Counted from the first letter of the stretch, positions 8,813 to 41,883 are shown. The stretch is DNA of 64,000 nucleotides from an uncultured Gammaproteobacteria bacterium (GCA_963748215.1 CAVVHS010000006.1:32001-96000), one strand, 5' to 3'. The notes: generated by a model from the sequence alone, not told the origin. Numbers and translations are program-made.

Positions 8813-9230
8813 AAGGATGGTGGATATGACTCGCCGGCCCAAAATTGAGGGGGCTGCAGCGCTTCGGGCTTCGTCTGACGCACTTCGTTTCAGGTTAGTT
8901 AGCTAATGCTGTGCGGGACTGTCACGGGACCTGTCCAGCATCGTTGTGCGCTGTCCTGCAATTCTTGCAACGGGCGTCCCGAAATACATAAATAAACACT
9001 TGATGTTATGAACGGATAAGCGGCATGGGGTGCAGGTGGTCGAAGGTTCACAAAATCGTCAGGAACGATTTTGAACGCCGCGAAGCGGCGGCCCCGCAGG
9101 GGCGACGGACAGGGATGTCCGCCGTAAATCCTCTCGCCCCGGACAATTATTCCCTTTACCACTCAGTTGGTTATAGCTGCTTTCTCTAACTGGTCTTGCT
9201 GTTCAAAATCGTCAGTGCGGGACTTTTGCG
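8813..9230 (+). repeat. att junction A (attP-like), near-identical to 25403-25920
   Basis: About 400 bp shared with copy C; tRNA-Pro 3' core flanked by GTGCGGGAC arm-like motifs and an integrase tail (RKSPALTILNSKTS, minus strand). Confidence 0.8.
9023..9145 (+). other. 3' half of tRNA-Pro(GGG) with a 76-nt structured repeat in the T-loop
   Basis: gcatggggtgcaggtggtcgaaggttca[9051-9126]aatcctctcgccccggaca; no 5' half. Confidence 0.75.
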
Positions 9231-9232
9231 GG

Positions 9233-9565
9233 TGTGGTCCGCAAATACACATGCAGCTTTCGGCAGCAAGCCGTATTCATGATTTAATCCACCCAGGACA
9301 GGGTGAGTTACAAGCTTAAGGTGATTCGGGATGCGATATCGATGTATTTGTGGCGAGACAGGGAGATCGGATGGTGGGTCCGGTATGCCTGGGCCAATAC
9401 TGGAATGTGACCGGCCTTTGTTGTAATACGTCACCCGGTTTAACGTGATACTGCGAAGGTGGGTTTCCGCTAACGGGATAAAGAAGTCAAGGCATTCGCG
9501 GCGGAGTGTGCCAGTTACGCGTTCACAGAGACTGTTGGCTTTGGGGCTTCGAGGTGGTGCCCTAC
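9233..9565 (-). mobile_element. 3' relic of an IS481-like rve transposase
   Basis: PRSPKANSLCER.TGTLRRECLD...YYNKGRSHSSIGPG...PVLGGLNHEY; end TGTGGTCCGCAAAT. Confidence 0.75.
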
Positions 9566-9611
9566 AGTATACCCAACTTCTATTACCGTGAAGCAGCTTG
9601 AAAGTAAGCGT

Positions 9612-26349: not shown

Positions 26350-26916
26350 TTACTTTTCGGTGTCTTCGCTGCTGCCAGGCTGCAGGTCCCGACCCACGAT
26401 ACGCATGTAGGGTAGCATGCCTTGCATGCCGCGGTTGACCGCGTATTCGTTGTGATTGACCAGGTAAGCCTCCAGGCCGCGCGCGCTGTTACGCGGTACA
26501 ACCGGTGGGGGGATGTTGTTGGCACGGATGTAGTCATTGACGCCCGGGGCACTGGCGATGGCCGGCGCGCCGGCCGGGTCCTGCTGGCGGACCGACTGCA
26601 ACGAGACCACGGCCACGACGGCCACCGAGGCCGCCAGTGCCAAACCGGCGACCGGTTTGAACAGGGGCATGACGCGTGACTGGGCGGCGTGGATCTCCGC
26701 CTCCTGCTCCAGGGCTGCATGGACACGCCGGTAAAAGCCGGTATCGACCCCGTGCGGCAGGTTGCTGCGCAGTGTATCGCTGATGACCTGGTAACGTGCC
26801 AGTCGATTGCGTAAATTGGCGTCCCGTCCCAGTTGCCTGATCAGCAGGGCCTGTTCGGACTCGCACAGTTCATCATCAACCAGTGCGGAGAGCTGTTCGT
26901 GTAGAGTGTCCGTCAT
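26350..26916 (-). CDS. rseA: Anti-sigma-E factor RseA
   Basis: EQLSALVDDEL...RYQVISDTLR, TM LALAASVAVVAV, LEAYLVNHNEY; follows the rpoE relic. Confidence 0.85.
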   Translation of the reverse strand: MTDTLHEQLSALVDDELCESEQALLIRQLGRDANLRNRLARYQVISDTLRSNLPHGVDTGFYRRVHAALEQEAEIHAAQSRVMPLFKPVAGLALAASVAVVAVVSLQSVRQQDPAGAPAIASAPGVNDYIRANNIPPPVVPRNSARGLEAYLVNHNEYAVNRGMQGMLPYMRIVGRDLQPGSSEDTEK

Positions 26917-26937
26917 GGCAATCAACCTGTTCCGCAG

Positions 26938-27570: not shown

Positions 27571-27666
27571 AGTCGCTTTTAAGTAATAATTACGAATTCG
27601 CCATGCACAGGGGGCAAAATGACCGTAATGTAACCTGTGTTTACGGCTTCAAGAGGGGTGGCTTCT

Positions 27667-29214
27667 GTGAAACAGTACATCTGGCTTGTACCGTTAATTA
27701 TTCTGCTGACCAGTACAATCGCGTCGTGCGCACCCGAAAATGATGAGGCCGAGGTTCAGTACCAGTTACCCGCGACAGAGTTCGATCCATCCTTGCCCTG
27801 GCTGAATGTAAAGCGACCGCTGACACTGGAGGATCTGAAGGGTAAGGTTGTTATTCTTGATTTCTGGACCTACGGGTGTATCAACTGCATCCATGTCCTG
27901 GAAGACCTGCGACGCCTCGAACACAAGTACGGAAACCAGCTCGCAATAGTCGGGGTGCACACCCCGAAGTTCGATAACGAAAAAAATGTCAGCACCTTGC
28001 GCAATATCATCATTCGTTATCGGATTGAACATCCTGTCGTGAATGACGTGGAGTTCGGTCTGGCCCGCTACTATGGAATGCGTGCCTGGCCAACGCAGAT
28101 TGTCATTGACCCGCAAGGAAAGGTTGTGGGCGAGGTGCTGGGCGAAGGGAATTATGATGTACTCGACAAAGCAGTTGCAAAGCTTATCAAGCGACACGAA
28201 GGGCACATGAATCCTGAACCGCTACCCTATAGTCTGGAGCGGGACGGTTTGGCTGACTCATTGCTTGCGGCCCCCGGCAAGATTGCGGTTTCCAGCCGGC
28301 ATGTCGCTATCAGTGATACGCTGCACAACCGCGTGATTGTGGCGGATCATCAGGGGAAAATCGAGTCGATATACGGGGGTAAACACGGTGGTTTTAATGA
28401 TGGGGACGCCACCACGGTGCTGTTCTCTTCACCCCAGGGGCTGGCCTTTGCAGATGACGGGCTGTATGTGGCCGACACGGGCAACCATGCGATTCGCTAT
28501 ATCAATCTGTCACGGTCCGAGGTCGAAACCGTCGCCGGTGGCGGGGAGGTCGAGATTCCGCGTTCCGGGACATTCGATGCAAAGACAGTACGCTTGCGCT
28601 CGCCCTGGGGCCTGGCGCTTAAAGATAATCTGCTTTACATCGCGATGGCCGGCACTCATCAGATCTGGCGTCTCGACCTCGAGACGGGGCAGATCAGAAA
28701 CTACGCGGGTAGCGGGCGAGAGGGTCTAAGGGATGGGGCGTTACCTGAATCACGATTCAGCCAGCCCAGTGGACTGAGCCTGAGTGGGAAGTGGCTATAT
28801 GTCGCAGACGCCGAGGATTCCGCGATTCGCAGGATTGATGTCGAAAGCGAACGCGTGGAGACACTGGTAGGTACTGGCTTGTTTGATTTCGGGGACCGTG
28901 ACGGTTCTTTTGGCCAGGCTCTGCTGCAACATGTATTGGGAGTTGCAGCAGTAAGTGCCTCCGAGATCGTTATCGCAGATACCTATAACCACAAACTGAA
29001 GCGACTGGACCTGAACAAGCGGCGGGTTGTTTCGCTTGCAGGGAACGGTGCGCCAGGCAAAGAACGCGAAGGGTCGCAACGGGTCCAGTTGAATGAGCCC
29101 GGTGGCCTGGCGGTACTGGGCCACCACATACTCATTGCAGACACGAACAACAACCGTATCATGCAGTATGACCTTGATTCCGGTGATGTCGGCGAGTGGG
29201 TCCTGGCGCCCTGA
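27667..29214 (+). CDS. Thioredoxin-like plus NHL-repeat lipoprotein (SOQ1/NHLRC2 architecture)
   Basis: TIASC lipobox; GKVVILDFWTYGCINC, GVHTPKF, RAWPT; NHL repeats YVADTGNHAIR, IADTYNHKLK. Confidence 0.9.
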   Translation: MKQYIWLVPLIILLTSTIASCAPENDEAEVQYQLPATEFDPSLPWLNVKRPLTLEDLKGKVVILDFWTYGCINCIHVLEDLRRLEHKYGNQLAIVGVHTPKFDNEKNVSTLRNIIIRYRIEHPVVNDVEFGLARYYGMRAWPTQIVIDPQGKVVGEVLGEGNYDVLDKAVAKLIKRHEGHMNPEPLPYSLERDGLADSLLAAPGKIAVSSRHVAISDTLHNRVIVADHQGKIESIYGGKHGGFNDGDATTVLFSSPQGLAFADDGLYVADTGNHAIRYINLSRSEVETVAGGGEVEIPRSGTFDAKTVRLRSPWGLALKDNLLYIAMAGTHQIWRLDLETGQIRNYAGSGREGLRDGALPESRFSQPSGLSLSGKWLYVADAEDSAIRRIDVESERVETLVGTGLFDFGDRDGSFGQALLQHVLGVAAVSASEIVIADTYNHKLKRLDLNKRRVVSLAGNGAPGKEREGSQRVQLNEPGGLAVLGHHILIADTNNNRIMQYDLDSGDVGEWVLAP

Positions 29215-29314: not shown

Positions 29315-30385
29315 TTAGTGAGTCTGTTCCATCACTTGAAACAGATTGCGTGCGTGGTTTGTCTTCGAACAAACGGCGCATAAGTCGCAACTGCTTGTCT
29401 TTATTGAGGGTTGGTGAAACGGCACGCCGCAAGCGCGACACCGGTGCGCTGTCAAGGGCAGCTCAAACTGGACTTGTGAACTCCAGTGATCGACGCAGAC
29501 CGCTTTCTGGTCGCAAACGTCCACACAGATGTCGCAGCCTGTACAGCATTCAGCGTCAAGACGGTATTGGAGGATATCTTCACTGCTGTACAGCGCGATA
29601 GCACCTTGCGGGCAGAGCCGTGCACAGGCATTGCAACCGTTGCATTTTGTAGAATCGATGCGCGGTGAAAACGGGACGACATCGTTCCGACTTGTCCGCG
29701 GTAATAATTTCCCCGGTGGTGTAAACGCCCGTTCTTCGGCAGGCCTGGTGACGTCCATCCAAACCGTCATGGAGGAGGTCGCCGCTTTGCGGAAAAAGGC
29801 TCTGCGACTGATTGCCGGTCCGCTGAACGACTGCTTTGCGTTCTGTGATTGCTGGTTCCATTCTTCCCGATCTGCGACCTGGAGTGTTATCGTAGCCAGA
29901 TTCCGGCTTTCCAGCATGCCGGTCAACTGTTCAAGCAGATCCGGAAGCTGTAAAACACCGCCCCTGATGCAGGATGCACAGTCGCCCGTTGCGACGCATA
30001 AGCGGCGCATGCCGCTTCGGTACAGTTGCAGCAGATCCTGGAGTCCGAGCGCGTGCAGGCAGGGAATGATTCCGTCTTTGCCATTGACGCCGGCCTTTTC
30101 ACAGGCGAACAGGGCTGATGTGCGGCTTCCCGAGAGCACTGGCAAATTGGCCTGATGCGGAATGATTGCGCCTTGCGGGCAGGCGGATGCGCAAAGTCCG
30201 CAGCCGTCGCAGGCCTCGGTGTCGATGCCCAGGGATTCTTCATCCATCACCCACGCGTTCACGGGACAGGCATCCATGCAGGCGCGGCAGCTGGCTTGCG
30301 TCACTAGTGTGTGCACGCAACGTTCGGCGATGACTGTTGGCAGTGTCGCAGGCTCACAATAGGGGGCGATGATTTTATGCCACAA
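29315..30385 (-). CDS. Multi-[4Fe-4S] ferredoxin-like protein
   Basis: CRACMDACP, CDGCGLCASACP, CNGCNACARLCP, CTGCDICVDVC. Confidence 0.88.
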   Translation of the reverse strand: MWHKIIAPYCEPATLPTVIAERCVHTLVTQASCRACMDACPVNAWVMDEESLGIDTEACDGCGLCASACPQGAIIPHQANLPVLSGSRTSALFACEKAGVNGKDGIIPCLHALGLQDLLQLYRSGMRRLCVATGDCASCIRGGVLQLPDLLEQLTGMLESRNLATITLQVADREEWNQQSQNAKQSFSGPAISRRAFFRKAATSSMTVWMDVTRPAEERAFTPPGKLLPRTSRNDVVPFSPRIDSTKCNGCNACARLCPQGAIALYSSEDILQYRLDAECCTGCDICVDVCDQKAVCVDHWSSQVQFELPLTAHRCRACGVPFHQPSIKTSSCDLCAVCSKTNHARNLFQVMEQTH

Positions 30386-30430
30386 GATGCCTGCCTCCCG
30401 AATGTGTTTTAGTCACGATAAGCGAAATGC

Positions 30431-31216
30431 TTACCAGGAAGGGCCGCCTGCGCCAGGTATGAATTTCACCGGGATAGCCGGCATGTCCATCCTGGTCCGC
30501 TGCTTTTGTGCCTCGATTTCCTCAGAAGTCGGACGTGGTTCTTCCAGGATGTCAGCCAGTAGGTCGCGTAATTCCTCGCAATAGGCGCCGGTGAGCAAGT
30601 TGATGCCTGCATAGAATGGTGTCGCACAACGGCCGGCGACACGGCTGGTAAACGGCATTAGCCAGCGGAGCAGGTGTTCATCCATGAAACGTGCCGCCGT
30701 GGTGAATACTTCATCCCGCTGTTCCTCGCCAAACAGGTGGGCCAGGAACTGGAGTTGGAGAACCAGGTGGTCGTCGGCGCGCTTGCGCCAGTCCGTGGCC
30801 TCCAGTCCATGACGGTGGTAATACTCGCGGACCTCGAACATGGACTGTTGCCGTTCGAGGTGCTCTTCGTCGATCCATACCGATTCATTGGGTGAGGCCC
30901 GGTATGCGTGGGTGAGATAAATGCCCGCGTAATCCACTGCGAGTTCATCGGCATGTTGCTCATCGAGCGGGTCCGGAAGACCGGCGAGCGCTTTTTCGAT
31001 CAGCACCAGCGCCTCTTGCGCGGCCTTCGATTCAAGTTTCAGTCCCAACGCGGCCGGAAAACCGGTGTGCTTCAGTGATTGAATCAGCGAATTATCCGCT
31101 TCGGCGTCGTGCAGGATCGCGAGTTGCGCCAGATCCTGGGCGAGCGCTGCGCAGAAATCGCCGAGCAGGCTGGCTCTGTCAGGGATTGCCTGGCCGGTGA
31201 CAGCCGCGGCGCACAT
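30431..31216 (-). CDS. dmsD: TorD/DmsD-family molybdoenzyme chaperone
   Basis: SPNESVW, ADDHLVLQLQFLAHL, FMDEHLLRW, PFYAG. Confidence 0.88.
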   Translation of the reverse strand: MCAAAVTGQAIPDRASLLGDFCAALAQDLAQLAILHDAEADNSLIQSLKHTGFPAALGLKLESKAAQEALVLIEKALAGLPDPLDEQHADELAVDYAGIYLTHAYRASPNESVWIDEEHLERQQSMFEVREYYHRHGLEATDWRKRADDHLVLQLQFLAHLFGEEQRDEVFTTAARFMDEHLLRWLMPFTSRVAGRCATPFYAGINLLTGAYCEELRDLLADILEEPRPTSEEIEAQKQRTRMDMPAIPVKFIPGAGGPSW

Positions 31217-31881
31217 CAGTCGACCCTGCCTTTGCTGTGCGGGACGAAGCCGATGGAGGGCTTGGTGAGTTCCGGATCAGCCATGTTCTTTACCTGACGT
31301 ACCACTGTGTCATTGGGACCGATGGCTTTGGTCTTCAGTTCCTTTTCCCAGATCCAGTCGATGGGGCCGATATCGAGCACCCGCATCATACAGGCCATCA
31401 CGCAGTAAGGTCTGCGCCCGGCGTCTATTTCATCCACACACATATTGCATTTCTTCACCAGACCGTCCATGGGATCGTACTGCGGTGCGCCATAAGGGCA
31501 GGCGGCCTCGCAGCGCCGGCAGCCGATGCACAAGGTCGAGTCGATGTCGACGATGCCGTCCTTCTTGCGCTTGAAGATCGCACCGGTCGGACAGGCCGGC
31601 AGACAGGCGGGTTCCGCGCAATGATTGCAGGACATGTTGACCTTGTAGGCATAGACGTCCGGGTATGTCCCACCCTCTATATACTGAACACGTCTGAATC
31701 GGGGGCCGGGTGCCAGACCGTTCTTGTCCTTGCAGGCGATCTCACAGGCGCGACAGCCGATGCAGTCCACATTGTTGTGGACAAATCCCAGCTGCATATC
31801 CGGGACCACGGGTGTGTAGACTTCTTTCCTGTGACGCTTGATCGCAGCCTTGATCTTTGCCTTGTCTTTCGTTGTGGCCAT
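31216..31881 (-). CDS. dmsB: Four-cluster Fe-S subunit, DmsB-like
   Basis: CIGCRACEIACK, SCNHCAEPACLPACP, CIGCRRCEAACPY, KCNMC...CVMAC. Confidence 0.9.
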   Translation of the reverse strand: MATTKDKAKIKAAIKRHRKEVYTPVVPDMQLGFVHNNVDCIGCRACEIACKDKNGLAPGPRFRRVQYIEGGTYPDVYAYKVNMSCNHCAEPACLPACPTGAIFKRKKDGIVDIDSTLCIGCRRCEAACPYGAPQYDPMDGLVKKCNMCVDEIDAGRRPYCVMACMMRVLDIGPIDWIWEKELKTKAIGPNDTVVRQVKNMADPELTKPSIGFVPHSKGRVD

Positions 31882-31904
31882 TGGTCTGTACCTTTAGTCC
31901 GATT

Positions 31905-34475
31905 TCACAGGTCACGCCGGAATACGTGTGCCCGCGAGGTGGCGAGCTGGTCCCACCCGGGACGGTGTGCAAGTTTTGTCTTGGTGATGTTTGCCAGCAC
32001 GGTGTTATAGGCAAAGGCACCCGCCGGGCTTGGCTCATCGAGGGTCAGAAAGTCCGGGTTGCCGGAGCGGTCCACGCCGTTTTCATCGAGGTCCATCCAG
32101 GCCCCTTCATAGATGATGAGCACCCCCGGCATACAACGTTCGGTGACATAGGCGGGTACAACGACCTTGCCTCGCTCATTCCAGACTTCGCAGATATCCC
32201 CCATCTTGATTCCCAGCTTTCTGGCATCCGACGCGTTTACGGTGACCTCCTGCTCGTAGGTCTCCCGCAGCCAGCTGCAATTGTTGAAAATCGAATGCGT
32301 CCGATGGCGGGGATGCGGCGAGATCAGGTGGAACGGGTATTTGTCTGTTTTCGGACTGTTCAGTGATTCCCATGGCTCGATCCACTTCGGGATAGCCGGG
32401 ATATGATAGCCGTACATGGTCTTGGTCCAGTCTGTTATCTGTGCAAGCTGGGTTGAGAGGATCTCGATCTTCCCGGAGGGGGTCTGGAAGGGCAATCCTT
32501 TCTCAATCTGGTCCTGAAACGCGACATGTGGTCGGGACAGTTTGAACTTGTAGACACCTCTGCGCTTGAATTCATCCCACGGCATGGTCACGCCCTGATG
32601 GGCCATGACCTTGTGCTCCCACCAGTCGCGCAAATAGGCCTCGTCGACATCATCCTCATACTGGAAGTAGTTACGCGTAGCCTTGGGATTGAAGTCGCGG
32701 CCAAATTCAGGGCTTATTCGATAGGCCAGTTCAGTGAAGATCTGGAGGTCGGTCTTGCTTTCCCCCAGCGGTTCGATGACTTTGGGACGATGGATGTAGT
32801 AATGCCCCTTGTACCACGGCAATGCAGCGTCGTGCCGCTCGAAATGTGTCGCCACCGGCAGCAGCACATCGGCCCAAAGCCCGGACGGTGTAATGGTGGA
32901 ATCCATGCACACCACCAGCTCCATCTTCTTGATGGCCTGCAGCTCCTTGTTGATATTGGTGAGCTGGTTCAACCAGTCGGAACCTTGCCAGAAGATACCG
33001 CGGATATTGGGGATCTGTCCGTCAGTTGCATCCTCGCGTGGCCACAGGCCGATCTCTTCGCGCTTGACATTGGGATAGTTCAAAACACAGTGCGCCCAGC
33101 GATCGGACTTGATCGACTGGAACCAGATGTTCGAGTACTTGTCGTAAGGGTAAGCGACAGCCTCCGCGTGCCAGGCTTTGCCCACACCTTCGGCGCAACC
33201 ACCCAGGATGCCGATATTGCCGGTCATGGCCTGCAGTGCCGCTGCCATACGGTTGTATTGTTCGCCGTAGGCGTTACGGCCCGGCGCCCACGAAGCCTTG
33301 AGCGCAGCCGGCTTAGTGGTCGCGTACATATGAGCGAGCTTCTTGATGTCAGCGGCTTCCACGCCGCAAATCCCTGCAGCCCATTCAGGCGTCTTGGGCT
33401 GGCCGTCGGAGTTGCCCAGGATGTAATCCTTGAACGACTCCTTGCCTCTGGCCCAGTCCGGCATGGTACCGGCGTCCATGCCCTGCACGAATCGATTGAT
33501 GAAGGACTGGTCCTGGAGATTGCTGGTGAATATATAGTGCGCCATGCCCGCCAGCATGGCCGCATCGGTATTGGGCCGGATGGGAATCCACCACGCGTCA
33601 TATACCGCGGCCGAATCCGTATATTGCGGGTCGATCAGCACGAACTTGCAGCCTTGCTGTTTGGCCATGCGCATATAATAGAACGTATTGCCGCCATGGA
33701 AGGTATAGGCCGGGTTCCAGCCCCACATGATGATCAGCTTTGAGTATGCAAAGACGTCGTCCTCGTTGCCGTCCTCAATTGTGCCGAAAGTCGTGCGCGA
33801 GCTGAAGGTGGTGCCTTGATAGGAGGGCACTGACCATGAGTTGGTACGGCATCCGAACATTCCGAGGAAACGGGCAAGCAATCCTTCGATCTGGTCGGAT
33901 TTATGCAAAACACCATAAGAGGCGCCCGCATAGCTCTGGTCGAGGAGGGCCGTGGGCCCATACTTGTTCTTGATCTCAACCATCTTGGTGGCAACATGAT
34001 CGAGTGCGGTATCCCAGGAGACACGTTTGAATCTGCCTTCGCCACGTTCCCCGACGCGCATCATGGGATACAGCAGGCGCTCCGCCGAGTAGATGCGCTG
34101 GCGGTATGAGCGGCCGCGCAGACAGGCCCTTAACTGGGGTTCTTCAAATGTGTCCTTGCCGTGTTGACCGTCTGCCTGATAGCTTCCGTCGTCGGTCGAC
34201 AGGCGGACGATGACATCACCCTTTTTGTGGGCCACCAGCATGTGACGGGAACCGCAATTGTGTGCGCAACTGGTGACTACGGTTTCGAGTTCATCATCAC
34301 GTGGATAGGGTTCGTAAGCAAAGGCCCTGGCCTGTTTCGCAGTACGCAGGTCAATAAGGCTGCCGCCGGTCAGGGTCGCGGCGCCAGCAGCAGAGGTCTT
34401 CAGGAATGACCGTCGGGTCATGTTAAGTCGTGATGCGAGCGCCTTCAGTTTATCAGGATCCATGTAGATACCCAT
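31905..34475 (-). CDS. dmsA: Tat-exported DMSO-reductase-family (DmsA-like) Mo-bisPGD catalytic subunit
   Basis: TRRSFLK; CAHNCGSRH...RACLRGRS; PIRPNTDAAM; ADVLLPVAT; RTHSIF; substrate not established. Confidence 0.88.
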   Translation of the reverse strand: MGIYMDPDKLKALASRLNMTRRSFLKTSAAGAATLTGGSLIDLRTAKQARAFAYEPYPRDDELETVVTSCAHNCGSRHMLVAHKKGDVIVRLSTDDGSYQADGQHGKDTFEEPQLRACLRGRSYRQRIYSAERLLYPMMRVGERGEGRFKRVSWDTALDHVATKMVEIKNKYGPTALLDQSYAGASYGVLHKSDQIEGLLARFLGMFGCRTNSWSVPSYQGTTFSSRTTFGTIEDGNEDDVFAYSKLIIMWGWNPAYTFHGGNTFYYMRMAKQQGCKFVLIDPQYTDSAAVYDAWWIPIRPNTDAAMLAGMAHYIFTSNLQDQSFINRFVQGMDAGTMPDWARGKESFKDYILGNSDGQPKTPEWAAGICGVEAADIKKLAHMYATTKPAALKASWAPGRNAYGEQYNRMAAALQAMTGNIGILGGCAEGVGKAWHAEAVAYPYDKYSNIWFQSIKSDRWAHCVLNYPNVKREEIGLWPREDATDGQIPNIRGIFWQGSDWLNQLTNINKELQAIKKMELVVCMDSTITPSGLWADVLLPVATHFERHDAALPWYKGHYYIHRPKVIEPLGESKTDLQIFTELAYRISPEFGRDFNPKATRNYFQYEDDVDEAYLRDWWEHKVMAHQGVTMPWDEFKRRGVYKFKLSRPHVAFQDQIEKGLPFQTPSGKIEILSTQLAQITDWTKTMYGYHIPAIPKWIEPWESLNSPKTDKYPFHLISPHPRHRTHSIFNNCSWLRETYEQEVTVNASDARKLGIKMGDICEVWNERGKVVVPAYVTERCMPGVLIIYEGAWMDLDENGVDRSGNPDFLTLDEPSPAGAFAYNTVLANITKTKLAHRPGWDQLATSRAHVFRRDL

Positions 34476-34487
34476 TCTGTTCGATGA

Positions 34488-35297
34488 TCACTGTGCTGGT
34501 TGTACGGATTCCCCGGCTATGCCGCCAAGAAAACGTGCCTCCGATTCGCTGGGCCGGTCCTTTGCCCAGTCAGGAATCTGCTCGGCGATACCGGGCCAGC
34601 TATGACGCGGGAAAGGGAAACTGGTCCGGAACCATGCGCGTCCGCCGTGGCAGCCAAAACACACATCTGCATCTTCCTGGCCAGCCTGTTCGATGGCTTC
34701 GGCATTGAGGAAATTAACCTGGTGGCGATGGGTACGGATCGCAATATGGCAGGTCAGACATGAATCACCGAAGGTTTCGCTGACTTCGAGCCACGGGCCG
34801 GGCAGCCCCATGAGCTGGTAATCAAACTTTCCATGACACATCAGGCAGGTCTTCGGATTGACCACCTTGCGCAGCGTGAAGCCGGCATCGTTGCTGGTTG
34901 GCGGGACTGGTGCCTCCTCGCGAGGGTCGTGGCCCTGATGACAGGTGTTGCACTTCATGTCCATCACCCGTTTCGCCAGCGGCGTTACCAGGTGACGCCG
35001 GTGAAAAGTCTCCTGTGGTCCTGCATAGGTGTTCAGAGTCTGGTACCACGCCAGCGCTTCACTGGCCGTAACCCCGGCCGGTGACTGTTCCAGCACCTTG
35101 CGTTCCAGTATTTCCTGATGGCAACCCAGGCACTGTTCATCGCTTGTGCTATCGATTGCCGGTTTAAAATGGCTGGGATCCCAGCGCGCGGCTTCATATG
35201 CCTCTGTATCAGGATCGGCTGCCCGGACATCTATCCAGGCAGTAATCGTGCTTACCATAGCCAGCAGCAGAAAGATGGTTACCTTGACAGTTTGCAT
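34488..35297 (-). CDS. Periplasmic pentahaem c-type cytochrome
   Basis: Signal peptide; five CxxCH (CLGCH, CNTCH, CLMCH, CLTCH, CFGCH). Confidence 0.9.
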   Translation of the reverse strand: MQTVKVTIFLLLAMVSTITAWIDVRAADPDTEAYEAARWDPSHFKPAIDSTSDEQCLGCHQEILERKVLEQSPAGVTASEALAWYQTLNTYAGPQETFHRRHLVTPLAKRVMDMKCNTCHQGHDPREEAPVPPTSNDAGFTLRKVVNPKTCLMCHGKFDYQLMGLPGPWLEVSETFGDSCLTCHIAIRTHRHQVNFLNAEAIEQAGQEDADVCFGCHGGRAWFRTSFPFPRHSWPGIAEQIPDWAKDRPSESEARFLGGIAGESVQPAQ

Positions 35298-35388
35298 CAA
35301 TCCCGTGTCCTTGAGAAAAGACAAATCAGTTCATGGCGAAAGAGATCAGAGGGTACGTCCCTGTACCCCCAGGATCCCTATTGAACCC

Positions 35389-36741
35389 TCACTCGCCCTT
35401 GGGTGGCGTCCATTCTTTCTTGCCTTCCATGCCCTGCATTCCGGACATACCGCCCATGCCTGACATGCCGGACATACCGCCCATGCCTGACATTCCGGAC
35501 ATACCGCCCATACCTGACATTCCGGACATACCGCCCATACCTGACATTCCAGACATACCACTGGCCGGATAGAAGTAGATCTGGCCCTGGGGTGTGATCT
35601 GGAAATAGCCGGACATACCGCCCATGCCACCCATGCCTCCCATGCCGGACATACCGCCCATGCCGGACATGCCGCCCATGCCGGACATGCCGCCCATGCC
35701 GGACATGCCGCCCATGCCGGACATACCGCCCATGCCACTCATACCGGACATGCCGCTAGGTACCCAGACCCACTGGCCGCCCATGCCTTGCATACCGGAC
35801 ATACCGCCCATGCCTGACATTCCGGACATACCGCCCATGCCTGACATGCCGGACATACCGCCCATGCCGGACATGCCACCCATGCCTGACATGCCGGACA
35901 TACCACCCATGCCGCTCATGCCTGACATGCCGCCCATACCGGACATCCCGCTCATACCACTGGCCGGATAGAAGTAGATCTGGCCCTGGGGTGTGATATT
36001 GAAGTAGCCGGACATACCGCCCATGCCACCCATGCCTTGCATGCCGGACATACCGCCCATGCCTGACATTCCGGACATACCGCCCATGCCACCCATGCCT
36101 TGCATACCGGACATGCCACCCATGCCGCCCATGCCTGACATACCACCCATACCGCCCATGCCACTCATGCCGGACATGCCGCCCATGCCGCTCGGCACAT
36201 AGACCCACTGGCCACTCATGCCTTGCATGCCACCCATACCGCCCATGCCTGACATACCACCCATGCCGCCCATGCCGGACATGCCACCCATGCCACCCAT
36301 GCCTGACATGCCGGACATACCACCCATGCCGCTCATGCCTGACATGCCGCCCATACCGGACATCCCGCTCATACCACTGGCCGGATAGAAGTAGATCTGG
36401 CCCTGGGGTGTGATATTGAAGTAGCCGGACATACCGCCCATGCCACCCATGCCTTGCATGCCGGACATACCACCCATGCCTTGCATGCCGGACATGCCGC
36501 CCATGCCTTGCATGCCGGACATGCCGCCCATGCCTTGCATGCCGGACATACCGCCCATGCCTTCCATGCCGGACATACCTTCCATACCGGACATACCTTC
36601 CATACCGGACATGCCTTCCATACCCGACATGCCGGCCATACCCGCCTCAGCGGAATGGACTTGCGGTGCACCGATCAGAGATCCCATTACGGTAACCAGT
36701 CCGATGATTTTCTTGAAGCGATACATTCGTGACATATTCAT
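35389..36741 (-). CDS. Secreted methionine-rich (Gly-Met-X)n repeat protein, 450 aa
   Basis: GAGGAG/AAGGAG RBS; signal peptide ending VHSA; GMS/GMG/GMQ/GME repeats with synonymous codon variation; operon strand. Confidence 0.85.
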   Translation of the reverse strand: MNMSRMYRFKKIIGLVTVMGSLIGAPQVHSAEAGMAGMSGMEGMSGMEGMSGMEGMSGMEGMGGMSGMQGMGGMSGMQGMGGMSGMQGMGGMSGMQGMGGMGGMSGYFNITPQGQIYFYPASGMSGMSGMGGMSGMSGMGGMSGMSGMGGMGGMSGMGGMGGMSGMGGMGGMQGMSGQWVYVPSGMGGMSGMSGMGGMGGMSGMGGMGGMSGMQGMGGMGGMSGMSGMGGMSGMQGMGGMGGMSGYFNITPQGQIYFYPASGMSGMSGMGGMSGMSGMGGMSGMSGMGGMSGMGGMSGMSGMGGMSGMSGMGGMSGMQGMGGQWVWVPSGMSGMSGMGGMSGMGGMSGMGGMSGMGGMSGMGGMSGMGGMGGMGGMSGYFQITPQGQIYFYPASGMSGMSGMGGMSGMSGMGGMSGMSGMGGMSGMSGMGGMSGMQGMEGKKEWTPPKGE

Positions 36742-36778
36742 ATCTTTCTCCTTCTCCTCAATAATATTCTTCTGAGTT

Positions 36779-36830
36779 AGACTGCGGTTATCCGCAGTCT
36801 GGTTTGGCACCGGCCTGGCAAACAGGCCGG
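36779..36830 (-). promoter_or_regulatory. Twin stem-loops in the leader of the Met-rich gene
   Basis: agactgcgg-ttat-ccgcagtct and ccggcctg-gcaaa-caggccgg. Confidence 0.5.
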
Positions 36831-36879
36831 GGTTTCTTTGCGCCCGCGTAGCGGGTGAGGCTGAGCAGCCAGGCGCCCT

Positions 36880-37185
36880 TCAGTCACCGGTATACCAACC
36901 ACGCATGTCATAATGGCCCGTCATGCCTGGATGGATAAACGGCGTATACCAGTTACCCTGGTCCTCGAGAAAACCGAGGCTGTTGGGGTAGGGCTTGCTT
37001 ACGCCTGTCAGTGCTTGCTGATACCAGACGTCACCCTTGATCACCTGCTTGATGACAGGTGCGTTGTTTGGACGCTCATAAGGTGTGAGACCGGCTATTG
37101 GATACTCTGCCTGCGCAACGCTCCATGCACTGAGCAGTGCAGCCGTAAGTCCGACGGACACTTTTCCCTGTCGATGATGTTTCAA
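36880..37185 (-). CDS. Small secreted Tyr/Pro/Trp-rich protein, first gene of the operon
   Basis: GGAGGAG then TTG start; signal peptide ...VAQA; YPIAGLTPYERP...DQGNWYTPFIHPGMTGHYDMRGW. Confidence 0.75.
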   Translation of the reverse strand: MKHHRQGKVSVGLTAALLSAWSVAQAEYPIAGLTPYERPNNAPVIKQVIKGDVWYQQALTGVSKPYPNSLGFLEDQGNWYTPFIHPGMTGHYDMRGWYTGD

Positions 37186-37276
37186 CTCACTCCTCCCCAC
37201 GAGTGAAAGTCACAAGATCATACCGCGCTTTGATTTTCAAAATGCGGTTTGCCTTTAACTCCCTCAAATCTAATGT

Positions 37277-37292
37277 AGCAAACTCTGAGCCA
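37277..37292 (-). promoter_or_regulatory. sigma54 -24/-12 promoter
   Basis: Minus strand TGGCTC-AGAGT-TTGCT: one mismatch to TGGCAC-N5-TTGCW, correct spacing, about 90 bp upstream of the first gene. Confidence 0.75.
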
Positions 37293-37382
37293 ATAGCCGT
37301 CAACTTCCTGCAAGGGTCTGTTGTCAAACGGGTATTAGACTGATTGGCGGGAGCCGGGTGTCGTTCGCCAGTTACTGAAATC

Positions 37383-37461
37383 TGCCAATTTGGCGAGAGA
37401 AAAGGCTGGATACACACAACCTCATTGATTTGCCTGGAGAATTATTTATGCCAAATTTGCA
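37383..37461. promoter_or_regulatory. Two putative enhancer (UAS) palindromes
   Basis: TGCCAATTTGGCG (37383-37395) and TGCCAAATTTGCA (37449-37461) upstream of the sigma54 site. Confidence 0.45.
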
Positions 37462-37570
37462 GGTGATAGTGCGTTTCGCCAGCCGGGAGTGTACAGGCTG
37501 CGCAGCATGCATTTCGACGAGATCCGGGAAGGGTGTTAAGGACTTTTCACCGGATTGTCGGGCAGGAATA

Positions 37571-38374
37571 CTAAAATAAAGGCAACAGCTCGCCGTTCCG
37601 CTTGTTAATGATCAATTCATTACGCAACCTGTAGGGTGGTATTTGGTCAACAATCTTGACAAGATAAATCCAGTTGATGTTGCGAATACCGCCCACGCCA
37701 AGCTCTGTATATCCGGACTCCAAACGCCAGTTTTCACTGATCCGCCATGCCTCTTCGATGGTGTTTACCGGCAACTTTACCCCTGCCGTGAACAGGAATT
37801 CCTGTTGTTCTTCGGCACAATCCGCTTTGGTTGCGGTGGGAAGTGGAAGGGGGTGCGCTGGCGCCAGGAGATGTAAAGCGTTGCTGCCTTCCTGTACCAG
37901 ATTCCAGCTGTAAGCCTCTAACAATTCATGTAATTGCTGCATATCTTCAGATGACACCGTCAATGTGATCGATACAGGTGCCGGTTCCTGTGCCGGTGGA
38001 GTGTCCCGTAATGGCAATAAAAGGGTGGAACCATCAGGGGCGCGCTCTACGCGCCAGCCACGCGTTTCCAGCAGGCTGCGCAGGCTTTCAAAATCGCCGG
38101 TCATCGATGGCTGCGGCACAGTGACATCGTCTGCCTCCGCTGCCTGTGGAGTGTCTCGTAACGGAAATAACAGGGTGGAACCATCAGGGGTACGCTCTAT
38201 ACGCCAGCCCCGCGTTTCCAGCAGGCTGTGCAGGCTTTCAAAATCGCCGGTCATCGATGGCTGCGGTGCAGCGACATCGCTCGCCTCCGCATTCCATGCC
38301 CATATGGCATATCCCGTCAAAGCAAGCACCAGAACCCATCGGAAAGCCTCGTGCCACCGGATCAGAATTTTCAT
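37571..38374 (-). CDS. Secreted hypothetical protein with a 50-aa tandem duplication
   Basis: Signal peptide; SLLETRGWRxERxPDGSTLLxPL twice (150-bp period, 37998-38290). Confidence 0.75.
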   Translation of the reverse strand: MKILIRWHEAFRWVLVLALTGYAIWAWNAEASDVAAPQPSMTGDFESLHSLLETRGWRIERTPDGSTLLFPLRDTPQAAEADDVTVPQPSMTGDFESLRSLLETRGWRVERAPDGSTLLLPLRDTPPAQEPAPVSITLTVSSEDMQQLHELLEAYSWNLVQEGSNALHLLAPAHPLPLPTATKADCAEEQQEFLFTAGVKLPVNTIEEAWRISENWRLESGYTELGVGGIRNINWIYLVKIVDQIPPYRLRNELIINKRNGELLPLF

Positions 38375-38629
38375 GTTATGCTCCTCAATACATTAATAAT
38401 AATTAGTTAATCGACCGCGCAGGGTATGTGCATGGCGACTTTGTTATCGACCTGGGTAGCAGGTGTCGGGCGCTCGTTATGGACGGAGCAATTGTCATGC
38501 CAGTTGCCAGGTACAAGGCAGGCATCCAAATTGAGTCGCTGCGGAACCTGACTCACACACTGGTGTATTTTCCGGTTGAGGAGGTGTCCGCTTTGGGGCT
38601 GCCAGTATCGCAGTAGCTTTTGATGTTAG

Positions 38630-40534
38630 ATGAATATAATGCCCACAGCGACCACACGTTGGATAAAGACGAGTCTCAGCCGCAAGTTTCTGTCAGGCGT
38701 CGCTGCAGGGCTGGTCGTGACCTCGCTTGTCTTCCTGTTGTTGTTTATGGCCATGTACCGCGCCCAGTTGCAGTCAGAACGCATCCAGGCCGTAGAAGAT
38801 ATTAATCGGCTGCTGCAGACGTCTCTGGAAAACGCAATGCTCAAGCGGGATCTGGACGGACTGCGCGACATCGTTGCCAGACTCGGTCAACAGGACGGCA
38901 TTGTTGGGGTAATGATCGTCAATCCGGACGGTGAAGTGCGTTTTGCCGCTGATCAGAACATGCTGGGGCACCAATTTTCCAGGGAAACGGATTCAGCCTG
39001 CCGCGTATGTCACTTGAGCGGAAGCATGCCTGACGACACCACTGTTTTTACCGTAAACGAACGGGGGCAGGAGGTCTTGCGCAGCGTTAACCCCGTGCAG
39101 AACAAGGCAGCCTGTATCGGTTGCCATGGCCCGATAGAGACTCATCCTGTCAACGGCGTCCTGTTTGTCGACTACGATGCATTGCCCATTCGTCGTCATG
39201 CGCAACAAACGACTTTGTTACTCATGGGATCCGGTGCCCTGGTGGTGTTGATCACGTTAACGGGTGGCTGGTGGTTTATGCGCCGATTCGTTCTGCAACC
39301 GGTACAGCAGTTGTGCAAAGCCAGCCAGGCGATGTCAGAAGGACAACTTGATGCGCGTGTCCACTTGCCCGTAACAGATGAACTGGGAGAGCTCGGCCGC
39401 ACTTTCAACGTGATGGGAGAACGTCTGGAGCGGAGTATGCGTGAATTACAGGAGAAAGATTTATTCCTGCAAGGCGTTGTGGATGCCATTCCAGACGGTA
39501 TTCGCGTGATAGACGATCAGTTCGCAATTGTGCTGTCCAATCAGGCCTATCGCCAGCAGCTGGGTCTTGCAGAGGAAGAAGAAAGCGCCAGGCCGTGTTA
39601 CCTTTCCAGCCACAAGCGTTATCAACCCTGCCCGCCAACACTGGTACGCTGTCCGCTTCACGAGATCCTGAAAAACGGCGAGCCTGTGAAAGTGCTCGAT
39701 CAGTTTATTGGTGCTGATGGTCGGCCGTTTTCCGTGGAAGTGGTTGCTGCACCCATGCAGATGCCTGTCGGGGATGACTCCAGGACCCTGATCGTGGAAT
39801 CAGTGCGTAATCTCGAAGAACATGTTCTGTTCTCACAGGAACAACGACTTTCAGAACTGGGACGACTCGCGGCTGGTGTGGCCCATGAAATTCACAACCC
39901 GCTGACATCTATACGCCTTGCACTGGACTCGATGGTGAAAGCGGGGAAGCAGGCTGATGGGAACCTTTCCAGGGCATGGGACTATCTTGAGGTTATTGAT
40001 TCACAGGTCGATCAGTGCATCAGCATAACAGAGCGACTCCTGAAAATGAGCCTGTCTCCTGGGCAGCGCCAGGTTGTGGATATGAATGTCGCGGTTGGCG
40101 AGGTTATATCACTGGTTGCATGGGAAGCCGAGAACAAGAGTGTTTCAATCCATCAAAAACTCGATCCAGGCAACCCGCGGGTCATTGCGACTGAAAGCGA
40201 ATTTCGTACTGTGATCCTGAATCTGGTGCAGAATGCCTTTCATGCAATGCCGGATGGTGGACGGATCGACATCTGCACCCGGAAGAATAACGGAAACGTA
40301 ATACTCATCGTCGGGGATACGGGGGTGGGCATTCTCCCTGAAGACCGGCCGCATATCTTCGAGCCTTTCTTCAGTCGCCGTGCTGACGGCGTGAATGGCA
40401 CAGGGCTCGGCTTATCCATTCTTCGGGCAGTTGTCGACCACTATGGCGGACGCATCGAGGTAGAGAGCCAGCGCGGTCAGGGTAGCCGATTCACCGTATT
40501 ATTTCCCGATGCCGATAGCGAGGGAAGGTACTAG
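38630..40534 (+). CDS. Sensor histidine kinase with periplasmic dihaem-c domain, HAMP, PAS, HisKA and HATPase
   Basis: Two TMs flanking CRVCH and CIGCH; DELGEL; AHEIHNPL; NLVQNA; DTGVGI; GTGLGL. Confidence 0.92.
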   Translation: MNIMPTATTRWIKTSLSRKFLSGVAAGLVVTSLVFLLLFMAMYRAQLQSERIQAVEDINRLLQTSLENAMLKRDLDGLRDIVARLGQQDGIVGVMIVNPDGEVRFAADQNMLGHQFSRETDSACRVCHLSGSMPDDTTVFTVNERGQEVLRSVNPVQNKAACIGCHGPIETHPVNGVLFVDYDALPIRRHAQQTTLLLMGSGALVVLITLTGGWWFMRRFVLQPVQQLCKASQAMSEGQLDARVHLPVTDELGELGRTFNVMGERLERSMRELQEKDLFLQGVVDAIPDGIRVIDDQFAIVLSNQAYRQQLGLAEEEESARPCYLSSHKRYQPCPPTLVRCPLHEILKNGEPVKVLDQFIGADGRPFSVEVVAAPMQMPVGDDSRTLIVESVRNLEEHVLFSQEQRLSELGRLAAGVAHEIHNPLTSIRLALDSMVKAGKQADGNLSRAWDYLEVIDSQVDQCISITERLLKMSLSPGQRQVVDMNVAVGEVISLVAWEAENKSVSIHQKLDPGNPRVIATESEFRTVILNLVQNAFHAMPDGGRIDICTRKNNGNVILIVGDTGVGILPEDRPHIFEPFFSRRADGVNGTGLGLSILRAVVDHYGGRIEVESQRGQGSRFTVLFPDADSEGRY

Positions 40535-40536
40535 TT

Positions 40537-41883
40537 ATGATAAAAACCATCCTGGTTGTCGAAGACGACAAGATTCTAAACCGGCTCATTGCCGAACACA
40601 TCGAACGCATAGGCTATGCGGTTCGGGCTGCGTACACCTGGGCAGAGGCCGATCAATATCTGGCGCACCATGAACCGGATCTCGTTTTGATGGATGTGCG
40701 ACTGCCGGACGCGAACGGGATGGAACTGCTTCCCCGGTTGGCAGGTGTGCAACCCGTCATTGTTGTCACTGCATACGGATCGGTGAAGGATGCCGTGAAA
40801 GCCATGCATGCAGGGGTCGAAGATTATCTGACCAAACCCATCAGCCTGGATGAATTGGAAATCGTGGTAAAGAGGACGCTGGATAATATCGCCATGCGAG
40901 CGGAACATCAATTTTGCATACAGCGGATGCAGGCCAGTGAAGGCAAAAAGCTCATGATTGGAAACAGCCCGGCCATGCAGGAGGTCCATCGCCTGATTGA
41001 TGCAGTTGCCGGTACCGATATGACCGTGCTTATTCAAGGAGAAAGTGGTGTCGGTAAGGAGCTCGTGGCGAAGACAGTCCATGAGCGCAGTAACCGGTCA
41101 AAATGTAATTTCGTTGCAGTGGACTGCTGCACCCTTCCGGAAAAACTGTTCGAATCCGAATTGTTCGGACACGAACGCGGTGCCTTCACCAGTGCTGACC
41201 GGCAAAAGAAAGGACTTATCGAGGGCGCCGGTGGCGGAAGCCTTTTTCTGGATGAGATAGGCGAAATCGAAATGGCGGTGCAGGCCAAACTGCTGCGCGT
41301 GCTCGAAACCGGGGTGTTTCGCCGGGTCGGAGGAACGAAGGATTTACGCGCCAATGTGCGGATCGTGGCGGCCACGAACAGCGACCTGGAAAAGGCCAGC
41401 CGGGAAGGAAGCTTCCGTTCCGACCTTTACTACCGCCTGAGTGCTTTTATCATTACAGTTCCTCCGTTACGCGAACGCCGTGAGGATATACCCGAACTCG
41501 TTGATTATTTTATAGGTAGTCGCGAATTTTCACGCCGCATCAATACCACGGTATCTCGTAGTGCGATGCGCGCCTTACTGGCCTATGACTGGCCAGGCAA
41601 TGTCAGGGAACTGAAAAACACAATCGAACGCGCCATCATACTTTCCTGGCAGACCAGGAAGATACGTCCAGAACATCTTGCGCCTATGATTGCCAGTACC
41701 GAGTCGTCAAGTTCGGTGACATTGACCTTCGATCATGAGCCGAGTCTTGCCGAGGTTGAGGGAAAGTATCTGCAGATGCTGCTGACGAAGTACTCGGGAC
41801 ATCGTTTGGACATAGCAAAAAGGCTGGGTGTCAGTGAAAGAAATATTTATCGATTGATCGATAAACATCAGCTAAAGAGCTGA
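40537..41883 (+). CDS. sigma54-dependent response regulator (NtrC family)
   Basis: Receiver domain VEDD/MDVRLP; GESGVGKE; ESELFGHERGAFTSA; FLDEIGE; WPGNVREL; HTH. Confidence 0.95.
   Translation: MIKTILVVEDDKILNRLIAEHIERIGYAVRAAYTWAEADQYLAHHEPDLVLMDVRLPDANGMELLPRLAGVQPVIVVTAYGSVKDAVKAMHAGVEDYLTKPISLDELEIVVKRTLDNIAMRAEHQFCIQRMQASEGKKLMIGNSPAMQEVHRLIDAVAGTDMTVLIQGESGVGKELVAKTVHERSNRSKCNFVAVDCCTLPEKLFESELFGHERGAFTSADRQKKGLIEGAGGGSLFLDEIGEIEMAVQAKLLRVLETGVFRRVGGTKDLRANVRIVAATNSDLEKASREGSFRSDLYYRLSAFIITVPPLRERREDIPELVDYFIGSREFSRRINTTVSRSAMRALLAYDWPGNVRELKNTIERAIILSWQTRKIRPEHLAPMIASTESSSSVTLTFDHEPSLAEVEGKYLQMLLTKYSGHRLDIAKRLGVSERNIYRLIDKHQLKS

Follow-up and report, generated by a model that had tools for sequence, protein, structure and literature searches.

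A methionine-repeat secreted protein encoded with a DmsAB-like molybdoenzyme and a pentahaem cytochrome c: a possible regenerable methionine sulfoxide buffer of the periplasm

In Azospira suillum PS, the periplasmic protein MrpX is oxidised by hypochlorite, and its regeneration by the molybdoenzyme YedY has been proposed (PMC4436054). Here, we describe a gene cluster at positions 29315-41883 of a DNA stretch from an uncultured gammaproteobacterium (GCA_963748215.1 CAVVHS010000006.1:32001-96000), which we call the window (64,000 nucleotides [nt] in all). By analogy, the cluster may work like the MrpX-YedY1Z1 (MsrPQ) system while being built from other protein families; MrpX is compared here by its published description. 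In both cases, a methionine-rich, probably unstructured periplasmic protein is exported by the Sec pathway and encoded in the same operon as a molybdenum (Mo) enzyme exported by twin-arginine translocation (Tat), as is described for A. suillum (PMC4436054). In both, the Mo enzyme would be able to reduce methionine sulfoxide with electrons from the respiratory chain, a dedicated regulator would respond to an envelope signal, and the proposed logic is sacrificial oxidation of methionine followed by enzymatic regeneration. The parts differ throughout. The enzyme encoded here belongs to the dimethyl sulfoxide (DMSO) reductase family (DmsAB, with bis[pyranopterin guanine dinucleotide] [bisPGD], a serine ligand, and an iron-sulfur subunit), whereas that of A. 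suillum belongs to the sulfite oxidase family; electrons would enter through a soluble pentahaem cytochrome c rather than through the haem-b membrane protein MsrQ; and control by sigma54/NtrC and a haem-c kinase takes the place of SigF/NrsF. MrpX is small, with 20% methionine and 44% charged residues, whereas the protein encoded here has about 420 amino acids (aa), 27% methionine, and 40% glycine, is almost uncharged, and keeps a strict period of three residues. The (per)chlorate reduction context of MrpX is also missing here.

By family, the enzyme is closest to DmsABC and YnfEFGH of Escherichia coli and Haemophilus influenzae. It shares with them the best-scoring models (TIGR02166, DmsA/YnfE, and TIGR02951, DmsB), a Tat signal (PF10518, 24.0 bits against a cut-off of 22.7; motif TRRSFLK), a DmsB-type partner, and a chaperone of the DmsD/TorD family. 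Yet both subunits score below the curated NCBIfam cut-offs (601.5 versus 777.7 bits for DmsA; 192.3 versus 214.1 for DmsB), which suggests a distinct clade rather than a canonical DmsAB. The DmsA/DmsB identity given in a preliminary description of the locus, which was made from the DNA sequence alone, is thus right as to the best-matching subfamily but goes further than these scores allow. No open reading frame (ORF) for a DmsC membrane anchor was found in 29315-38400, where the pentahaem cytochrome (cyt5), a small exported protein (small106), and the methionine-rich (Met-rich) protein stand in its place; in the whole genome, the only DmsC-family match (PF04976) lies next to a different molybdoenzyme on contig C2. 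Two further differences from DmsABC are the sigma54 control and a histidine at the third position of the N-terminal iron-sulfur group (C70-x3-C74-x3-H78 ... C118; window 34200-34270), where we would have expected a cysteine. All four residues of this group are invariant in three orthologues, and the corresponding model (PF04879, Molybdop_Fe4S4) scores 20.1 bits, under its cut-off of 22.7.

The closest solved structure is the DMSO reductase (DorA) of Rhodobacter sphaeroides (1eu1; E = 1.7e-75). The Mo-ligand serine of S-oxide reductases is retained in the alignment: Ser218 matches Ser147 of 1eu1, which we take to be the Mo ligand there, and the preceding Ser-Tyr, with the neighbouring Tyr of DorA, is also kept. 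The Rhodobacter system likewise uses a pentahaem cytochrome as the donor. DorA, however, has neither an iron-sulfur subunit nor an N-terminal iron-sulfur group, no Met-rich partner is known for it, and its donor DorC is a membrane-anchored quinol dehydrogenase of the NapC type (PMC13488963), whereas cyt5 carries a cleavable signal peptide. A full-text literature search found no paper on a DmsAB-type enzyme with a Met-repeat partner, in agreement with the preliminary description, whose author knew of no described system of this make-up, and where a 2026 review of sulfoxide reductases uses the term "methionine-rich," it does not name such a partner (PMC13488963).

We favour the view that the operon encodes a regenerable periplasmic Met/Met-sulfoxide redox buffer, to which we assign a probability of roughly 0.45. 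In such a buffer, the haem-c sensor kinase and the NtrC-type activator would switch on the sigma54 promoter, and the cell would export large amounts of an intrinsically disordered protein with a thioether at every third residue. Strong oxidants, with reactive chlorine or halogen species, peroxynitrite, and the like as candidates, would convert the thioethers into Met-sulfoxide, which the Tat-exported, Ser-ligated DmsAB-type S-oxide reductase would turn back into Met. The enzyme, which has no DmsC anchor, would draw electrons through the soluble cyt5 from the pool of c-type cytochromes in the respiratory or sulfur-oxidising chain, with small106 probably serving as an accessory at the cytochrome end. 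The starting points are the parts themselves, their conservation, the selection for Met, the predicted disorder, and the transcription in a related symbiont; from these, we infer that the Met-rich protein is the substrate of the enzyme, what kind of oxidant is involved, and in which direction electrons flow. The preliminary description had offered two functions, an oxidant sponge and a redox capacitor. The sponge is the reading with the best support, and the capacitor is unlikely as an energy store because, on respiration rates that we assumed for a rough estimate, the stored electrons would presumably cover only seconds of full respiration. Published enzymology supports the regeneration step, as DorA is described as reducing protein-bound methionine sulfoxide (PMC7402097) and E. 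coli DmsABC as reducing Met-sulfoxide efficiently, with dmsA induced by hypochlorite and H2O2 (PMC12096835).

The seven genes that the preliminary description had placed on the minus strand behind a sigma54 promoter were all recovered by ORF listing and domain scans, each at its place and in the given order, and a -24/-12 motif precedes them (29315-37292 in total) (Table 1). A stem-loop between the small106 and Met-rich genes is not a terminator (z-score of -0.35; no T-run on the coding strand). A consensus scan marked a weak terminator-like site between the Met-rich and cytochrome genes (35349-35370, minus strand), to which we gave no weight. Among the accessory proteins, the chaperone matches the TorD and DmsD models under their cut-offs. 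The polyferredoxin, whose gene is kept downstream of the chaperone gene in most related loci, has a weak match to NapF (3.5e-8, under the cut-off), from which a NapF-like cytoplasmic role in maturation may be inferred.

Table 1. Positions of the genes and of the promoter motif in the window
Feature	Position	Strand	Remarks
small106, small Sec-exported protein	36880-37200	-	ORF; TTG at 37185 is the likely start; signal peptide ends between AQA and EYP
(G-M-X)n secreted protein	ORF 35389-36810; from likely start 36741, 35389-36741	-	450-aa precursor
cyt5, soluble periplasmic pentahaem cytochrome c	34488-35324	-	5 CXXCH, signal peptide
DmsA-like Mo-bisPGD catalytic subunit, Tat-exported	31905-34475	-	856 aa; PF00384, PF01568, TAT signal
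DmsB-like four-cluster iron-sulfur subunit	31216-31881	-	PF13247, E = 5e-23
TorD/DmsD-family Tat-proofreading chaperone	30431-31216	-	PF02613, E = 1.5e-20
Polyferredoxin	29315-30385	-	356 aa; Fer4 families, four 4Fe-4S motifs, without signal peptide
Sigma54-type -24/-12 motif TGGCTCAGAGTTTGCT	37277-37292	-	about 90 nt upstream of small106
rep267, secreted or anchored, three internal repeats	37571-38374	-	between kinase gene and promoter; no Pfam family
Sensor histidine kinase	38630-40534	+	periplasmic haem-c domain (CRVCH, CIGCH), HAMP, PAS, HisKA, HATPase
NtrC-type sigma54-dependent response regulator	40537-41883	+	PF00072, PF00158, HTH_8; divergent from operon

The mature Met-rich protein (~420 aa, 39.6 kDa) contains 113 Met (27%), 166 Gly (40%), and 60 Ser, with 8 Glu, 3 Lys, and 10 Pro, and is devoid of His, Cys, Asp, Arg, and Leu. 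In the precursor, the signal peptide is followed by six (G-M-[S/G/Q/E]) arrays of 45-72 aa each, between which lie three GYF[NQ]ITPQGQIYFYPAS hairpin modules and two GQWV[YW]VPS modules, and the protein ends in the tail KKEWTPPKGE. Across related loci, we counted the residues of the repeat triplets G-x-y (n=3994). Position 2 was Met in 3780 triplets, and residues that are single-base neighbours of ATG were nearly absent from it (Ile 0, Val 0, Leu 1, Thr 4, Lys 9, Arg 4); position 3 was Ser in 2159 and Gly in 1396. The Gly and Ser codons of the repeats vary freely at synonymous sites, the repeat frame stays open across genomes of very different G+C content, and the signal peptides are conserved. 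As Met is kept while Ile, Val, and Leu hardly ever occupy position 2, selection appears to act on the thioether itself, and we read the pattern as favouring a large number of thioether side chains carried by a flexible polypeptide; it does not look as if a fold, hydrophobicity, or a DNA repeat were being selected. An AlphaFold2 model built with 23 homologues, which we used only for the disorder of the arrays and for the hairpin modules (predicted local distance difference test [pLDDT] of 42.6 overall), predicted disordered arrays (pLDDT of 31-40) and beta-hairpins in the three YF..FYP modules (pLDDT of ~80). Array length ranged from 6 to 152 triplets between loci. Together with the predicted disorder, this variation suggests that the bulk of the arrays matters more than their specific sequence, which supports the buffer reading.

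Gly at each third residue would also fit a structural material (collagen-like, a polyglycine-II bundle, a hydrogel, or a sulfur-globule matrix), in which the thioethers would matter only for physical properties. Like the bacterial collagen-like proteins Scl1/Scl2 and Lcl, the protein matches the NCBIfam SclB/Lcl models, and the Pfam Collagen model scores above its cut-off of 27.2 bits, both here (30.2 bits) and in a paralogue at a Sedimenticolaceae locus (L036; 127 bits). Many hosts store sulfur, and a (GMx)n array is fused to an OmpA-like peptidoglycan-binding domain in another protein (P0231). Even so, we consider a purely structural role very improbable. The exclusion of Ile, Leu, and Val from position 2 speaks for chemistry and not hydrophobicity, Pro is confined to the modules and the C-terminal tail, charged residues are few, and the structure prediction gives neither a helix nor a bundle. 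The collagen-like proteins also differ in detail: here, every X is Met, with Ser or Gly at Y; the arrays, for which disorder is predicted, lack Pro and charge pairs; the protein has neither a trimerisation nor an LPXTG domain; and the SclB score is 54.8 bits against a cut-off of 325. Moreover, sulfur globules are not known from several of the hosts. Elsewhere in the genome, outside the window, lies a gene for another secreted low-complexity protein (G000:C6:514466-515293; 276 aa), in which (MSPWSGMSG)n repeats occur together with a region rich in Asn and Gly; it may, at a guess, be a protein of the sulfur-globule type.

Arrays of thioethers could instead buffer soft metals (Cu(I), Ag(I), possibly Hg), with the reductase keeping the ligand Met reduced or being functionally unrelated. 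The M-x-x-M spacing is regular and resembles the known Cu(I)-binding "Mets" motifs, and conserved Trp residues flank the arrays. A protein-database search with the Met-rich protein returned CusB-like adaptors and multicopper oxidases, although its 22 matches among 8000 scored candidates were mostly of low complexity and give no measure of family size; the search also supplied fusion proteins, which are described below. Copper stress is described as oxidising Met in CusF, and MsrPQ as repairing such oxidised periplasmic Met (PMC9302797). We nevertheless find metal buffering improbable. Unlike the Cu(I)-binding Met-rich proteins (CusF, CopM, PcoE, and the CueO insert), the mature protein contains no His, Asp, or Cys, and cop, cus, and cue genes are missing from the conserved gene set. 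Control lies with a haem-c kinase and NtrC rather than with a metal sensor of the CusRS/CueR type, and the obligatory linkage to a molybdoenzyme and a cytochrome would be left unexplained.

The association of the Met-rich gene with this enzyme is conserved well beyond the window. A scan with the DmsA alignment, using one genome per species, gave 577 relatives, and we examined the loci of the best 80 of these 577 (78-95% identical). Their hosts are Gamma-, Beta-, and Alphaproteobacteria of very different G+C content and include Sedimenticola, Candidatus Thiodiazotropha and other clam or tubeworm symbionts, Competibacter, Chromatiaceae, Thiothrix, Thiomargarita, Thiobacillus, Hydrogenophilales, Azoarcus, Niveibacterium, Methyloversatilis, Hyphomicrobiales, and Xanthobacteraceae. 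Most are sulfur oxidisers of oxic-anoxic interfaces, ranging from marine symbionts to freshwater and wastewater bacteria. Searches with the window proteins (tblastn) recovered a recurrent order of NtrC and kinase, (rep267), small106, Met-rich protein, cyt5, DmsA, DmsB, chaperone, and polyferredoxin, with the NtrC/kinase pair divergent or, in loci of the alphaproteobacterial type, downstream. A gene order shared by dozens of genomes from three proteobacterial classes is more than chance would produce.

We then scored the Met-rich ORF itself. Six of the 80 loci were left out: four had no cytochrome match (one 2.4-kb contig and three orphan dmsA genes of Albibeggiatoa and Thiotrichaceae), and two had less than 60 nt of sequence upstream of the cytochrome gene and were uninformative. 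In the remaining 74, a regular expression for at least three GMx units found an ORF just upstream of the cytochrome gene and inside the contig in 40 and an ORF running off the contig end in 28. Inspection by eye added two more, a contig-end fragment (L031) and an (MSGMSGQ[EK]G)n variant (L088). The Met-rich ORF is therefore present at 70 of the 74 informative loci (68 by regular expression and 2 by eye); a one-unit remnant occurs at one (L107), and no Met-rich ORF was found at three (L082, L090, and L098). The preliminary description had called for such a census, and the gene turned out to be far from absent in related operons. At 29 of the 74 loci (the 28 above and L031), the contig ends inside the Met repeat, typically 1-1.6 kb upstream of dmsA, which indicates that short-read assemblies lose the Met-rich gene systematically. 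The very short versions at two loci (L064 and L107) may be collapsed repeats. The three orphan dmsA genes (L091, L093, and L097) are 80% identical, and their loci gave no tblastn match to the cytochrome, DmsB, or other partner genes; at L097, no partner gene was seen among the ORFs within ~4 kb on either side of dmsA.

Among 40 relatives of the window genome, only three carry an orthologous DmsA (78-93% identity), namely, 1 of the 24 genomes of the same genus (G003) and two genomes from other families (G033 and G034). In all three, a Met-repeat ORF stands at the expected place and the contig ends inside the repeat. The distribution among relatives is patchy, as expected of a mobile module.

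These results suggest that the clade is almost always accompanied by a Met-rich partner that has been overlooked. Assemblies break in its repeat, and proteomics would miss it as well: all three Lys lie within the last 11 residues, so that trypsin would yield a single 411-residue peptide, leaving the protein invisible to shotgun analysis. The partner provides a directly testable hypothesis, which is that the substrate of the enzyme is a protein. If the buffer reading holds, the operon would represent a second, independently evolved methionine-based redox system in bacterial envelope biology, widespread in the sulfur-cycling bacteria of sediments, wastewater, and animal symbioses, and genes annotated for "DMSO respiration" in metagenomes would have to be read differently.

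Transcription was assessed at an orthologous locus of a clam symbiont (L048:6500-13300); of the words sampled from this locus, 73% and 56% were present in two metatranscriptome runs of a single study. RNA-library contigs (X1 and X2) cover small106, pieces of the Met-rich gene, cyt5, dmsA, and dmsB. One contig matches small106 without a mismatch (7639-7973; X1 record 2), and another, of 1312 nt, joins the 3' end of the Met-rich gene, all of cyt5, and the first 281 nt of dmsA (8971-10281; X2 record 12). These genes are thus transcribed at L048, with the Met-rich/cyt5/dmsA junction bridged. Depth was 0-0.16 in the stretch upstream of small106 (6954-7634) and ~2-3 on rep267; the silent stretch makes carry-over of DNA unlikely as an explanation. 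The preliminary description had asked for a check of co-transcription, and the bridged junction is in line with it, but such contigs show neither a single transcript nor expression levels, and we did not use the depths to rank genes. Two other runs (X8 and X6) contained mainly diverged relatives with many mismatches.

Work on lucinid symbionts may concern the same enzyme. In one such symbiont, a gene similar to anaerobic DMSO reductases is described as ranking with the most strongly expressed genes in each of 5 transcriptomes and 6 proteomes, alongside aerobic oxidases (PMC6872982), and the authors describe the substrate of the enzyme as unverified (PMC8090883, 10.64898/2025.12.05.692423). Thiodiazotropha and Ctena-symbiont loci belong to the clade studied here and are covered in metatranscriptome libraries; the gene carries no identifier in the relevant passages of the lucinid paper.

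The cytochrome and its fusions point to how electrons reach the enzyme. Exactly 5 CXXCH motifs are present in 75 of 78 cyt5 orthologues, a weak similarity to NapC/NirT remains under the cut-off, and a sequence search of the PDB gave nothing below E = 0.06 and thus no sequence relative. In two alphaproteobacterial variants (L013 and L105), a membrane-anchored class I cytochrome c (PF00034) forms the N-terminal part of a fusion with cyt5. The small106 protein, encoded directly upstream of the Met-rich gene in related loci (tblastn), has no Pfam or NCBIfam match; its 81 homologues are all named "hypothetical," and 276 clusters were obtained at 50% identity. Its AlphaFold2 model (pLDDT of 66, mostly coil) was too weak for a fold search. 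Fusions of small106 to a pentahaem cytochrome (P0224), to membrane-anchored monohaem cytochromes c (P0208, P0201, and P0138), and to a short Met-rich tail (P0217) were found, and in one protein (P0240), a Met-rich segment is joined with a cytochrome c and cyt5. Through such fusions, both small106 and the Met arrays are linked to the cytochrome end of the electron path, where small106 is probably an accessory. A predicted small106-cyt5 complex (score of 0.14, mark of 0.32) is evidence neither way. On other proteins, (GMx)n tails occur on a tetrahaem quinol dehydrogenase of the NapC/NirT type (P0234), on the OmpA-like peptidoglycan-binding protein mentioned above (P0231), and on a secreted DsrE/DsrF-like protein (P0233).

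The same wiring would suit a respiratory or detoxifying reductase of small molecules, DmsAB acting with cyt5 on DMSO, trimethylamine N-oxide, or another S- or N-oxide, or on a high-potential oxyanion such as chlorate, iodate, bromate, or selenate, with electrons fed by the cytochrome c pool; the Met-rich protein would then be a sacrificial shield that quenches a reactive product and not a substrate. The class I cytochrome c fusions suggest feeding by cytochrome c, the operon has no DmsC, and the genome's only DmsC-family gene lies beside its other molybdoenzyme. DMSO reductase genes of Shewanella are described as required for iodate reduction and as mediating bromate reduction (PMC9048795, PMC9468665), MrpX itself occurs in a (per)chlorate context, where it shields perchlorate reducers from hypochlorite (PMC4436054), and the authors of the lucinid studies read their enzyme as a possible alternative terminal reductase (PMC6872982, PMC8090883). 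We regard this explanation as doubtful on balance. The conserved set contains none of the cld, pcr, clr, or idr-like genes, and hosts that range from marine symbionts to freshwater and wastewater bacteria have no obvious oxyanion in common. Furthermore, a stoichiometric scavenger cannot sustain respiration unless it is re-reduced, which leads back to the regenerable buffer.

Class I cytochrome c wiring would fit a dehydrogenase as well. If the enzyme worked in reverse or reversibly, as a thioether dehydrogenase, then protein-bound Met/Met-sulfoxide could be a periplasmic redox mediator or store, a "solid-state DMSO" that would be loaded while acceptors abound and emptied under anoxia or through reaction with reduced sulfur. 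The life of most hosts as sulfur oxidisers at oxic-anoxic interfaces, the fusions of (GMx)n tails to a quinol dehydrogenase (P0234) and a DsrE-like domain (P0233), and the very high expression of the lucinid gene beside aerobic oxidases (PMC6872982) are all in keeping with this idea. Were it true, the Met-rich protein would be a respiratory substrate or mediator and not merely an antioxidant, and sulfur oxidisers and symbionts living at fluctuating oxic-anoxic interfaces could use its Met/Met-sulfoxide pool to buffer electrons or to pass them between sulfur chemistry and respiration. We think that there is little chance of this, given the small capacity relative to respiration rates in the rough estimate above. 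To our knowledge, all characterised Ser-ligated enzymes of the DmsA/DorA/TorA type act as reductases, and without a catalyst, sulfide reduces sulfoxides slowly at neutral pH.

A strict sigma54 motif (TGGC-N8-TGC[ATC], within 450 nt upstream of the small106 gene) was present in 26 of 41 related loci. The NtrC-type gene adjoins the kinase gene in related loci (tblastn). The divergent dihaem kinase and NtrC regulator that had been noted earlier are both there, and the window kinase does have two CXXCH motifs; among its orthologues, however, 38 of 39 have at least one such motif and only 4 of 39 have two, so that just one of the two haem motifs is conserved.

Several observations weigh against a regenerable Met/Met-sulfoxide buffer. 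The Met-rich gene is missing from, or reduced to a remnant at, the four informative loci named above (L082, L090, and L098; L107). With DmsA and DmsB scoring below the cut-offs, the enzyme could act on something other than S-oxides. The wiring to a class I cytochrome c, seen as fusions in some variants, is more usual for high-potential acceptors or for dehydrogenases than for a DMSO-type couple near +160 mV; electrons could therefore flow the other way, or a high-potential oxyanion could be the substrate. Because Met is oxidised only slowly by H2O2, a stronger oxidant would be required, and the gene content indicates none. Met arrays are also typical of Cu(I)-handling proteins, with the CusB-like and multicopper oxidase matches among the database hits. 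Finally, the MsrP family (PF00174) was not found in 23 of the 24 genus genomes, many of them incomplete metagenome-assembled genomes, whether or not they carry the module, and it is present in the module-bearing G033 and G034. A complementary distribution of the module and MsrP was rejected on this basis, as the genus genomes lack PF00174 regardless of the module and G033 and G034 have both; the window's own genome (95% complete) gave no PF00174 match.

Two neighbouring genes deserve mention. The rep267 gene, which did not figure in the preliminary description of the locus, is restricted to loci of the Sedimenticolaceae/Thiodiazotropha type (tblastn over related loci). The C-terminal 61 aa of rep267 recur, with 43% identity (E = 4e-11), as the C-terminal domain of another protein with (G-M-N/S/A)n arrays, the second of its kind at the Sedimenticolaceae locus L036 (L036:3688-4653), and Met arrays hence also occur fused to this unnamed domain. 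Beyond the other end of the operon, a lipoprotein gene (27637-29214, plus strand) encodes a thioredoxin-like CxxC domain and NHL repeats. It is a neighbour in many Sedimenticolaceae/Thiodiazotropha loci, in either orientation, and is absent from the Thiobacillus, Competibacter, and alphaproteobacterial loci (tblastn); we rejected it as a member of the module and read it as lineage synteny. An RseA-like anti-sigma gene (26350-26925) adjoins the lipoprotein gene.

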